A stretch of DNA of 64,000 nt, from contig JBMNIF010000003.1 of NCBI GenBank assembly GCA_050950765.1, forward strand, positions 64,001-128,000. Reading direction: 5' to 3'. The DNA is from Bdellovibrionota bacterium (lineage in GTDB: Bacteria; Bdellovibrionota_C; UBA2361; JAAYZI01). A program made the position numbers and the translations under genes. The notes under the pieces are model-generated. The model was given only the letters and a program-made list of their open reading frames with translations. It made no database searches and had not been told where the DNA came from. This document shows, piece after piece, positions 12,444-16,057 of the stretch (its first letter is position 1; each line of letters opens with the position of its first letter).

Positions 12444-12980
12444 ATGGACTTTTTTGAAGTTATAGAGAAGAGACACAGTTATCGAGGTAAATTTAAAGAT
12501 ACTCCTGTTAGTAGAGATGACTTAAATAAGATCCTTCAAGCTGGCATCTCTGCCCCCTCCGGTTGTAATGCACAAACAACTACCTTTATCGCCGTAGACG
12601 ATCCGCAAGTGCTTTCAAAGATAAAGGAGGTTGCTGGAGAAAGTACTGCTATAAAAACAGCGCAAGCCGTTATCGCCGTGCTTATAGATACCACACCAAA
12701 AGCAGTATATAACGGGATGTCGTTTCAGGTAGAAGATGCCTCTGCTGCCGTTCAAAATATCTTACTTGCAATTACTGCTTTAGGATATTCTACGGTTTGG
12801 ATTGATGGCTGGTTACGGTGTAATGATAACGGTGCAAAAATCGCTGATATCTTGAAGGTTCCACAAGAAAAAACGGTAAGAGTTCTGCTTCCGATCGGAG
12901 TTGCAGCAGAAACGGTGTCGAGGGCAAAGAAGCGTCCCCTAGCAGAGCGTGTTTCTTATAATGAATATAAGGGCGCTTAA
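12444..12980 (+). CDS. Nitroreductase family protein
   Basis: IEKRHSYR, APSGCNAQ, AVQNILLAITALGYSTVWI; ATG at 12444 after AAGGAG. Confidence 0.9.
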   Translation: MDFFEVIEKRHSYRGKFKDTPVSRDDLNKILQAGISAPSGCNAQTTTFIAVDDPQVLSKIKEVAGESTAIKTAQAVIAVLIDTTPKAVYNGMSFQVEDASAAVQNILLAITALGYSTVWIDGWLRCNDNGAKIADILKVPQEKTVRVLLPIGVAAETVSRAKKRPLAERVSYNEYKGA

Positions 12981-13008
12981 ATATCTGTAAGAGAGCCTAA
13001 TAAGAATT

Positions 13009-13066
13009 AAAAAATGAAAGGCACGGAAGTCTTTCAATTGAGAGTTTAAAAAACCTTCCGTGCTTG
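13009..13066 (-). terminator. Terminator hairpin of array unit 1 (copies at ~13799-13855 and ~14472-14530)
   Basis: Minus strand (G)GCACGGAAG...CTTCCGTGCCTTTCATTTTTT; stem extends with G-U pairs only on the minus strand. Confidence 0.8.
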
Positions 13067-13117
13067 TAATTGCCGAAACCGTTTAGGTTCCGAGAGTAAC
13101 CGCGCGACGTTTACGCA

Positions 13118-13561
13118 TTAGAGCCTTACGAGTGGCAAGACCTCCTCTGGGAAGATTTTGAGGATAGCCTCAATGAAGCTAAGCAGTTCCTGATAACTTG
13201 GTCTCGATTTTGAGTCAGAGTTAGGCAAAGACACACCCTTGATGTGTTTTTTACTCCACACCGCGTCGGGTTCAATGCACTCCTCAATCAGATCCTGATA
13301 AGGCTTCTTCATGGCGTTAATCAAAAACAGCATGAAGTCAGGTTTGTCCCCGTACTCTTTGAGTAACTCCGCTATCGCAGTTGTAAGGTCTTTGTTCATG
13401 AAACATTTACGCAGATCCTCTGCGAGACCATCCGGCAACTCTTCACCAGCTAAAAAGCAACTATGGGCATTCCCAAGACCGTGCTCATTAAGCCATTCGA
13501 AGCAGGCGGGGTTAACAAACACCTCAAGCGGCACCCAAAAGCCTGTTTGAGCAGCACTCAT
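13118..13561 (-). CDS. Hypothetical protein, array unit 1 (147 aa from MSAAQ)
   Basis: AAGGAG RBS before ATG 13561; shares ELP, F..(F/Y)L and (I/C)FP..V motifs with the other two units. Confidence 0.7.
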   Translation of the reverse strand: MSAAQTGFWVPLEVFVNPACFEWLNEHGLGNAHSCFLAGEELPDGLAEDLRKCFMNKDLTTAIAELLKEYGDKPDFMLFLINAMKKPYQDLIEECIEPDAVWSKKHIKGVSLPNSDSKSRPSYQELLSFIEAILKIFPEEVLPLVRL

Positions 13562-13743
13562 CTGGCAATCTCCTTTTCCAACTAAAGCCATCAGACACCA
13601 AAACCTCTCTAAAAAAACAGAGACACAACCGTTATGTCTTGTGAAAGACTTCCTGCCTGAATAAAAAACATTAAAAAATGTTAATTACTCAGGCAAAAAT
13701 TAAATCTTCTACTGTATCAATTGTTAATTAAAGCGATCACCGG

Positions 13744-13772
13744 ATCTTACTGTTTTAAAAAACCTAAAGCAA
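13744..13772 (-). promoter_or_regulatory. Sigma70-type promoter, array unit 1
   Basis: TTGCTT-N17-TAAGAT on the minus strand. Confidence 0.65.
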
Positions 13773-13906: not shown

Positions 13907-14239
13907 TTAGAGCTTTACGAGTGGCAAGACCTCGTACGGAAAGATCGCGCGAAAAGTGCATTCAACGTTTAAATCGTACTAGCGCTCTTCGATGACGCGA
14001 GACAAAAACTGCGGAAAGTCACGTTCAGTCGCCTCGGGGAATCTTATGCAGAAAATTTCTGCATAGCAAGCGACTAAAACTTTTAGCTCGGCTTGGAGTT
14101 TTTCGTTTGAGAAACAACCACGCAGTCTTGCTACTAAGTCATCCGGCAACTCTTTGCCATTTGAAAAGTGCTCAAAAGCCAGCCGAAGGTCACTTTCGTG
14201 GAGCCTAAAGCAACCACAAGGATCATTTTTCTTTTCCAT
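13907..14239 (-). pseudogene. Array unit 2 ORF interrupted by in-frame TAG (13979-13981)
   Basis: MEKKNDP...VIEER* continues in frame as YDLNVECTFRAIFPYEVLPLVKL*, homologous to the unit 1 C-terminus IFPEEVLPLVRL*. Confidence 0.7.
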
Positions 14240-14555: not shown

Positions 14556-14978
14556 TTAGTCGCACAATCTCATCTTTTTCCAGACATTCTCTGGGAAACA
14601 TCTTGCGATGATACCAAGAATATCACGCAGTTCTTCAAGCTGAGCATCTTCAAGCGGCGATAGAACCCTCCCGCATTCAACCAGTGTTGAAGGATCCCTT
14701 ATAAGGAGATCGATCTCCTCAATCGGTTCCTTATAAAGCGTCAGTATCGCCGTAATCAGATAGCGTGAAAATTCGTCTGCGGTCGTTTCGGATGAGTCTT
14801 TACAGAATTGCTTAATGAGGCTACTTACCTCATCAGCGTTACTGTTTCTTGCCAAAGAATTAATCAGCTCTCGAGTGGTAGCTTCCGGTAATTCTTTATT
14901 CCTTTTACAGCACTTAAAAGCTTCGCGTAGAATCCTATCTAGATCGTCTTCCATAGAAGCTCTCATAGAAGCTTTCAT
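14556..14978 (-). CDS. Hypothetical protein, array unit 3 (140 aa from MKASM; alternative in-frame GTG start at 15014)
   Basis: AAGGAG RBS before ATG 14978; KELPE, FSRYL and CFPENV align with units 1 and 2. Confidence 0.7.
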   Translation of the reverse strand: MKASMRASMEDDLDRILREAFKCCKRNKELPEATTRELINSLARNSNADEVSSLIKQFCKDSSETTADEFSRYLITAILTLYKEPIEEIDLLIRDPSTLVECGRVLSPLEDAQLEELRDILGIIARCFPENVWKKMRLCD

Positions 14979-15158
14979 AGAAGTACTCCTTTTCCAGCTG
15001 AAGTTATCAGACACCAAAACCTCTCTAAAAAAACAGAGACATAACCGTTATGTCTTGTGAAAGACTTCCTGCCTGAATAAAAAACATTAAAAATGTTAAT
15101 TACTCAGGCAAAAATTAAATCTTCTACTGTATCAATTGTTAATTAAAGCGATCACCGG

Positions 15159-15187: not shown

Positions 15188-15277
15188 TTTTAAAGGATCT
15201 TTAATAAGAATTAAAAGGCACTCGAGGCTCCTTAAGATCTAGTCTTTATTTTTTAAAAAGATAATTAGTTCAATTGG

Positions 15278-16057
15278 TTAATTCTGATTTAGAAGCCAGA
15301 TCTGTAACATCCCCTTTATCGTAATATCAGGGTCGTAGATTATTTTTTCATCAATATCTTGATTTAGACGTTCCGTAATAACACCCCCCAAGCCTCCCGT
15401 TGATATGATATAAGGTATCTCACCGATCTCTCTTTTAAAACGTTCAATCAAGCCTGCAATCAAGCATTCATAACCTATCATAGTACCCGCCTGCATGGCA
15501 GAAACTGTGTTACGACCGATCACACTATCCGGAAAGACCCTCTCAATTCGTGGCAATTTGGCAGTTTTGCTAACTAAAGCATCTAACGCTATCTCTAAAC
15601 CTGGGGCTATCACACCTCCGATATAACTTCCAGCGCTATCAATGTAATCGATAGTTGTGGCGGTTCCAAAATCTACCACCAAAGCAGGAAGCCCATAAAA
15701 ACACTTAGCGGCAACAGCGTTCGCTATCCTATCAGATCCAACAGCCGCTGGATCGTTCTGCTTAATTAAAACTCCTGTCTTTACCCCTGGACCAACTATT
15801 AGCGGCTCGATGGCGAATTCATCAGCAATTAAAGTGCTAAATAATGTAGTTAATGGTGGAACTACGCTGGCAATAACAGCACCAGCACACTTAAAATCAC
15901 CGTTAAAACGTTTCTGCAAAAGAGAAACGAGGGTCACATTGTATTCATCACGAGTTCTGCGCAGATCAGTACAAAGCCGACATTCACAGATCAATTTATC
16001 CCCTTTAAAACAACCAACGATTATATTTGTATTTCCGATATCAACAGTTAATAACAT
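15278..16057 (-). CDS. coaX: Type III pantothenate kinase
   Basis: LTVDIGNTN, ASVVP, VGSDRIANA, VVDFGTATT, GGVIAPG, STGG. Confidence 0.96.
   Translation of the reverse strand: MLLTVDIGNTNIIVGCFKGDKLICECRLCTDLRRTRDEYNVTLVSLLQKRFNGDFKCAGAVIASVVPPLTTLFSTLIADEFAIEPLIVGPGVKTGVLIKQNDPAAVGSDRIANAVAAKCFYGLPALVVDFGTATTIDYIDSAGSYIGGVIAPGLEIALDALVSKTAKLPRIERVFPDSVIGRNTVSAMQAGTMIGYECLIAGLIERFKREIGEIPYIISTGGLGGVITERLNQDIDEKIIYDPDITIKGMLQIWLLNQN

Follow-up and report, generated by a model that had tools for sequence, protein, structure and literature searches.

Complementary message ends in a bacterial array of orphan genes and a likely second fold that competes with the terminal hairpin

Do the two ends of the messages from a small array of orphan genes pair with each other and, if so, at what stage in the life of the RNA? 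The array lies in the window (the whole 64,000-nucleotide stretch of Bdellovibrionota DNA that was analyzed) and comprises three head-to-tail units on the minus strand, flanked by a nitroreductase gene (ending at 12980, plus strand) on one side and a type III pantothenate kinase gene (15278–16057, minus strand) on the other. It is bounded by a 15-nt direct repeat at 12998–13012, with an exact copy at 15202–15216 and variants between the units. The non-coding frames of the three units (frame A) are near-identical, with 97–98% identity in the upstream regions and 92–98% in the terminal hairpins; inside these frames the ORFs diverge, with 59–65% identity over aligned DNA columns and ~24–35% protein identity to ORF 1. 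As in PeSL-like cassettes, a conserved promoter and terminator frame, both elements being predicted, surrounds ORFans.

All units share one order, described here for unit 1 on the minus strand. First comes a candidate sigma-70-type promoter (13744–13772; −35 at 13767–13772, 17-nt spacer, −10 at 13744–13749); these candidates, one per unit, were read by eye, were not called by the scanner and would place the start near 13740. A purine-rich GTAGAAGA motif (13705–13712), which likewise precedes the leader hairpin in frame family B of the same genome, is followed by leader hairpin A (13655–13694), the G-U pairs of which form on the minus strand, and by the leader segment (13642–13658), which is made up of the hairpin A base and a toehold with weak pairing and nearly duplicates the terminal hairpin's 5′ arm. 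Next are leader hairpin B with a run of 7 U (13611–13639), an upstream Shine–Dalgarno (SD)-like AGAGAGG with a GTG (13596–13610), the main SD (13570–13575) with its ATG, ORF 1 (13118–13561, 147 aa), a middle trailer hairpin (13073–13093) found in units 1 and 2 only, and the terminal hairpin (13021–13064). The upstream GTG frame is out of frame in unit 1 (24 codons, overlapping ORF 1) and in frame in units 2 and 3. With a GC-rich 9-bp base and a weak, G-U-rich top, the terminal hairpin is a predicted terminator (−19.9 kcal/mol) that the simple scanner missed because of its long loop. The trailer segment (13019–13036), complementary to the leader segment and adjoining a U-rich tail, consists of loop and 3′ arm of this hairpin, and a further loop segment (13040–13047) matches GAGAGG of the upstream SD-like site, with which it could form a second helix of 5 bp (−6.5 kcal/mol). 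The corresponding minus-strand features are the leader segment 14316–14332, trailer segment 13809–13826 and ORF 2 (13979–14239, 86 aa, ending in an in-frame TAG with a homologous coding remnant to ~13907) in unit 2, and the leader segment 15058–15074, trailer segment 14482–14499 and ORF 3 (14556–14978, 140 aa, an orphan paralogue) in unit 3. Hairpin B and its U run, copied in units 2 and 3, have the look of a putative attenuator, which could free a ~130-nt leader RNA carrying the pairing segment and possibly acting in trans.

A sequence-only reading of the array had described each leader segment as the reverse complement, with a one-base bulge, of the trailer segment of its own unit. The six segments are indeed present at the positions given above, and the duplex consists of 17 pairs plus one bulged G, with an energy of −25.8 kcal/mol in units 1 and 3 and of −22.9 kcal/mol in unit 2, which has one G-U pair. 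The core 12-mer occurs six times in the window (with at most one mismatch) against 0.55 expected, and none of 100 shuffles reached six; the three core copies are duplicates and therefore count as one event. When the trailer was shuffled, 0/400 reached the duplex score (p = 0.0025). When 2069 ORFs were scanned with Watson–Crick pairs only, the score of units 1 and 3 was 14.5; the 14 ORFs that scored higher were mostly associated with IS-like terminal repeats or palindromic or REP-like repeats, together with two units of another array, and the scan ranks the frame A array and a second array (C2:625565–628583) just under IS-like ends and palindromic repeats. The complementarity in the array is real and not a product of chance, and it is probably a selected RNA feature. 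Like the 12–17-nt complementarity of hbs-type messages, it joins leader and 3′ end outside the SD.

Two details of the earlier reading stand only in part. The C-to-U change in unit 2 does form a G-U pair with the leader, but it is accompanied by a one-base loss in the 5′ arm and the local hairpin stays fully paired, so the change is not specific evidence for the long helix. Mutual exclusion between the long helix and both local hairpins holds for the terminal hairpin; the leader hairpin conflicts through its basal 4–5 bp only.

The behavior of the array transcripts was assessed by equilibrium folding predictions on naked RNA, a model outside which pseudoknots, ribosomes and proteins lie. In full-length RNA the long helix is predicted at P < 0.0001, the local hairpins being favored by 9–14 kcal/mol, and with the ORF swapped for a spacer it lies 11–16 kcal/mol above the local fold. 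When 11–13 nt of the trailer segment are exposed, the predicted P of the long helix is 0.84–0.94 in unit 2, 0.72–0.93 in unit 3 and, under partial exposure, at most 0.24 in unit 1; at 16 nt the local hairpin is predicted to dominate in all three units. Since the helix wins at 11–13 nt and loses by 16, the leader is the preferred partner of the upper half of the arm, and the local stem that of the lower half. In these models, then, the long helix appears favored only in nascent or slightly 3′-trimmed frame A RNA, the reverse of hok.

The parallel with hok and aapA had been drawn in the sequence-only reading: a 5′–3′ helix would lock the full-length mRNA in an untranslated state, trimming of the 3′ end would activate it, and the cargo would be harmful to the cell. 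The gross anatomy is the same, in that aapA/IsoA and hok/Sok likewise form multi-copy modules with a structured leader and 5′–3′ complementarity (PMC6733600). The match of the trailer loop to the upstream SD-like element, the GTG of which opens a frame that overlaps the ORF or lengthens it, and the shortening of unit 2 by a stop speak for such a mechanism, as does the long helix being the predicted ground state in two other frame families (C and E, below). The predicted folds, however, support neither silencing nor activation: beyond the cost of the helix, the main SD is separate from the 17-bp duplex, at a distance of ~70 nt on its downstream side, and 3′ truncation by 10–100 nt brings no rise in its predicted accessibility, which with 10–40 nt removed stays nearly constant in unit 1 (0.22) and unit 2 (0.46) and is not raised in unit 3. 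The full-length fold of aapA and hok is described as stable, inert and SD-sequestering, around a short peptide and with an antisense RNA (PMC6733600); the array differs in its predicted local full-length fold, its main SD outside the helix and its soluble 140-aa cargo (compared with the same source), and the scanner called no plus-strand promoter in the leaders. A hok-like lock is, on balance, rather unlikely.

The proteins themselves bear on this question. The likely starts, ATG at 13561, 14239 and 14978, each stand 7–8 nt after a Shine–Dalgarno and give 147, 86 and 140 aa. The array proteins are acidic and predicted to be all-helical and globular (model pLDDT 79, pTM 0.76), and their maximum 19-residue Kyte–Doolittle mean of 0.9–1.4 indicates no transmembrane-like segment, unlike the short hydrophobic peptides of type I toxin systems. 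No toxin-like peptide or antitoxin was found at the array. The in-frame TAG of unit 2 (stop at codon 87) recurs with zero differences in an independent DNA contig (run X3); recoding of this stop was considered and dropped because TAG is a common stop in the genome (398 of 1511 long ORFs).

Contigs from read libraries provide some further hints. RNA-library contigs with zero differing letters cover ORF 1 in four of four runs, ORF 3 in three and ORF 2 in two; these runs were chosen for holding the array, may belong to one campaign and may contain DNA, and their contigs reveal neither strand, level nor small RNAs. The flanking housekeeping genes have almost no matching cover in the four runs, with one listed 139-nt piece of pgk, which, given how the runs were picked, is not a sign of high array expression. 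Among the ends listed, unit 1 RNA contigs stop at 13103–13104 in three of the four runs, where the DNA contig continues; this is a weak hint of a trailer-less form, as a hok-type mechanism would have it.

Could the repeats instead act in the DNA, as ends of a non-autonomous element or as sites of ORF inversion or excision? In favor of this, units 1 and 3 pair purely by Watson–Crick rules, the genome encodes three tyrosine recombinases, and the number of units apparently differs in one sample: in DNA run X13, one of four DNA runs, a single contig joins 13005 to 14469 and skips units 1 and 2, while another X13 contig continues across the unit 3 leader without a break; together these contigs point to a strain that has lost or lacks units, or else to an assembly join. 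The X13 joint, however, falls in the 58-nt direct trailer repeat and not in the inverted one. The repeated unit also continues on the far side of the leader segment for another ~140 nt, and its boundaries are marked by the different 15-nt direct repeat, so that the inverted repeats are not at the unit ends, and frame A is confined to this single locus, with no copy found elsewhere in the genome. In this 94% complete genome, the best integron integrase match reached 49.8 bits against a cut-off of 265, and no IS110 transposase or reverse transcriptase was found; moreover, frame families B and E favor G-U pairs on the transcribed strand. No ORF inversion joints were listed in the eight runs, which is uninformative as contigs drop rare variants. 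A DNA-level role, which the earlier reading had offered as its alternative, is therefore disfavored and very unlikely.

Single contigs carry the frame alleles of one unit beside the ORF of another (at 13746 and 13756 in run X9, and at 15088 in run X13) and reflect frame recombination or assembly mixing. A contig of run X7 matches only from ~14421 and has at least 255 unrelated letters before that point, representing another frame copy or an AT-rich chance match.

Turning to the rest of the genome (G000), six further frame families around orphan ORFs possess leader–trailer helices in sequences unrelated to frame A (C2:625565–628583, C1:346700–351800, C1:50910–51650, C2:1157589–1160240, C2:1226813–1227856, C3:567007–568776, C1:33555–35592 and C2:535137–537186). 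Because these six families have the same design in different letters, the two ends of the messages likely pair, as a second fold that competes with the local one. In a set selected for having both flanks repeated, ORFs less than 60% identical and no REP motif, with complementarity unused in picking, 19 genes in seven families were compared with 1778 background genes (Fisher p = 0.0025; 0.018 without frame A). The family median p was 0.011 for A (resting on units 1 and 3, as the best match of unit 2 is a neighboring-terminator artifact), 0.025 for B, 0.019 for C, 0.21 for D, 0.20 for G, 0.33 for H and 0.82 for I. Families E and F came from a list of tandem repeats, failed the filter for this set and stand outside the Fisher test; the tandem repeats at C1:52957, C2:902713, C2:1026110, C2:1172409, C3:66474 and C3:222412 also failed this filter and showed no convincing helix. 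Trailer shuffling with one member per family, which for C, D, E, F and G was the higher-scoring or first-found one, gave p values of 0.0025 (A), 0.010 (B), 0.012 (C), 0.032 (D), 0.0025 (E), 0.025 (F), 0.25 (G), 0.33 (H) and 0.89 (I), and the own trailer was the best-scoring partner for six of nine leaders.

Helices of 10–25 pairs spanning 340–1309 nt occur in all 22 units tabulated from families A–G, a table that leaves out leader B5, for which a partner was sought and none found, as well as H and I (C3:682505–686838; C1:353590 and C3:202218), in which end complementarity is absent and the ORFs carry hydrophobic segments. Family G fails the single-helix score and has, in addition, an outer helix of 11–13 pairs. 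Families B, F and G share with A a leader segment that begins in the 3′ base of a hairpin and a partner overlapping a terminal hairpin at its 3′ arm; family B even has the geometry of A, with 17 bp and a bulged G. The partner of leader F2 was sought and found 1.2 kb away, past two ORFs, both of which the F2 frame encloses. The genome also contains a very large family of 70–80-nt interspersed REP-like repeats, clustered and present on all contigs (e.g., C1:65271–65570 and C1:74672–74950).

For families C and E the ground state is predicted to contain the long helix (mean P 0.88–0.99), and the minimum-energy fold is without it in B, D, F and G (10 of the 14 units tested). Partial exposure of the 3′ arm raises its predicted P to 0.79 in G1 and 0.65 in B2, and to at most 0.12 in F1. 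Sequence changes preserve pairing in several cases: a pair that is C-G in D1–3 is U-A in D4, a double change that falls beyond the local trailer hairpin, and differences between E1 and E2 are retained as G-U, E2 having 20 Watson–Crick and 5 G-U pairs. F1 contains two A-C mismatches, and its opposite strand scores better (25.9 versus 18.5). Many leader changes are equally explained by the local hairpins.

These families allow the possibility of a mere by-product to be weighed: the leader segment could be what an old duplication of the terminator 5′ arm has left behind, decayed but preserved by frame homogenization, with no pairing to the 3′ end at any time. In favor of such a relic are the match to the 5′ arm at 10 of the first 11 leader positions, the prevalence of local folds at equilibrium in most families and the tolerated mismatches of F1. 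The toehold part, however, varies from family to family and is a better fit to the leader than to the 5′ side of its own hairpin, and the helices of D and E lie outside the local hairpins and keep their pairing through changes. We regard a by-product as unlikely.

A different function for the same pairing would be long-distance control of termination, in which the leader captures the 3′ arm before the terminator stem closes, and the state of the leader or missing translation sets read-through into the next unit. Predicted capture peaks at 11–13 exposed nt, before the GC-rich base can form, and the bulge and hairpin A interrupt the helix ~6 nt above the U tail, both in keeping with this idea. 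Each unit, however, has its own candidate promoter, the partners in D4 and E2 lie outside the terminal hairpin, and a duplex reaching the U tail might itself terminate. Control of termination is accordingly a distinctly unlikely role.

The explanation we favor, although we place it slightly short of an even chance, is an hbs-like closing of the ends in nascent or 3′-nibbled RNA that would govern processing and lifetime of the message. Each unit would be a self-contained orphan gene in a conserved non-coding frame, the leader of which complements the terminal hairpin of the same unit in loop and 3′ arm. The weakly paired leader toehold would capture the upper part of a partly exposed 3′ arm, such exposure arising during its exit from RNA polymerase or through loss of ~6 nt of the stem to a 3′ exonuclease, and the finished message would relax to the local hairpins. 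By analogy with hbs of B. subtilis, the end-paired state might mask or expose nuclease sites while leaving the ribosome-binding site unblocked; RNase III is present in the genome. Separately, recombination between frames may add, remove and homogenize units. Counting against this explanation are the local fold of full-length RNA, the weak effect of exposure in unit 1 and F1, and families H and I without a helix.

Among known systems, B. subtilis hbs mRNA is reported to have a 5′/3′-UTR helix of 14 bp (−19 kcal/mol) with a proven effect (PMC5737220). The array helix is comparable in size, and in both cases the 3′ end is matched to a stretch immediately following a leader hairpin, with the SD left free (PMC5737220). 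The hbs partner, as described there, lies just upstream of the terminator, whereas in the array the terminator supplies its own loop and arm as the partner, which, unlike in hbs, brings the folds into competition; the array design is moreover reused around many unrelated orphan ORFs, and its effect is predicted whereas that of hbs is proven (PMC5737220). In S. aureus icaR the 3′ end is likewise complementary to an SD-like leader element, but the pairing is reported to hit the gene's own SD, whereas the matched element in the array is the upstream SD-like site and the main helix lies elsewhere (PMC3868564). Anti-SD-like sequences of B. subtilis are also described as pairing with a ribosome-binding site across hundreds of nucleotides (PMC12697547). 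The PeSL cassettes of T4-type phages resemble the array in their conserved promoter–terminator frames around variable ORFans and in the gain or loss of units by recombination between frames (PMC2839356); the array frames differ in being chromosomal and longer and in having a structured leader, and the portion of the PeSL account drawn on here describes no leader–trailer pairing (PMC2839356).

Proven pairing of bacterial mRNA ends has so far concerned single genes such as hbs, icaR, hok and aapA; the present genome seems to have adopted it for seven frame families that enclose unrelated orphan genes, the terminator itself acting as competitor. If true, this would amount to a portable control module that marks a fast-evolving class of genes by RNA design alone and that is open to reporter-construct tests without culturing the host. 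More broadly, though we hold this to be doubtful, strand exchange between leader and terminator hairpins could serve this genome as an all-purpose RNA switch, built into expression frames that are used again and again for a whole class of fast-changing orphan proteins. Contrary to hok, the message ends would lock while the RNA is being made or once its 3′ end has been nibbled, and stable messages for proteins aimed at prey, phages or competitors would thereby be kept in store until required. Small, acidic, fast-changing proteins encoded in arrays may have conflict roles, for example as immunity or effector proteins.

Frame A with its flanks was not found in the 40 relatives searched, and family A consequently offers no covariation; two weak DNA matches among these relatives were rejected as AT-rich chance matches lacking the frame. 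Frame A cargo was found neither in GTDB genomes nor in viral contigs by protein profile, nor was the 24-mer in viral contigs, and a metagenome scan with a short pattern (7 of 64 parts) gave at least 116 loci, none of which, among the matches listed, extended beyond ~23 nt. In 90 genomes of the order, searches found neither frame B nor frame C, and frame D in one of them. A leader model (R1) gave 13 matches in G000, in its own families only, and none in the 90 other genomes; a model built from the B, F and G leaders scored the A leaders at only 13 bits, with E-values of 2.5–2.9, and A was absent from the genome-search list, so that, barely scoring A, it lends no support to common descent with A. 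Rfam yielded no match near the gathering score in the array, and no literature on such frames was found in a collection with few subscription papers. A D-type frame copy in a genome of another family (G008) keeps 10 pairs; this single frame (L229, G008:C2:39901–41026) is ~80% identical and surrounds a different orphan ORF.

Array proteins had no Pfam match above the cut-off and other cargo proteins none (0/18), while PHROG matched 0/20 and PADLOC 0/5 of the cargo proteins examined. Foldseek returned no match for the array protein model and the Atlas none that was usable; the best VIA match (Z 6.5, rmsd 3.2 over 104 residues) was set aside as a generic helical repeat, and no known fold was assigned. 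Three long repetitive matches in the 1.84-billion search were discarded as chance. The only outside homologues from the protein search are P0002, P0003 and P0005, with 67–79% identity. Compared with P0001 and ORF 2, P0002 and P0003 are nearly identical to each other over their first two thirds and differ at their C-termini, and both have a short stretch in common with ORF 2, patterns that may be signs of mosaic cargo genes.
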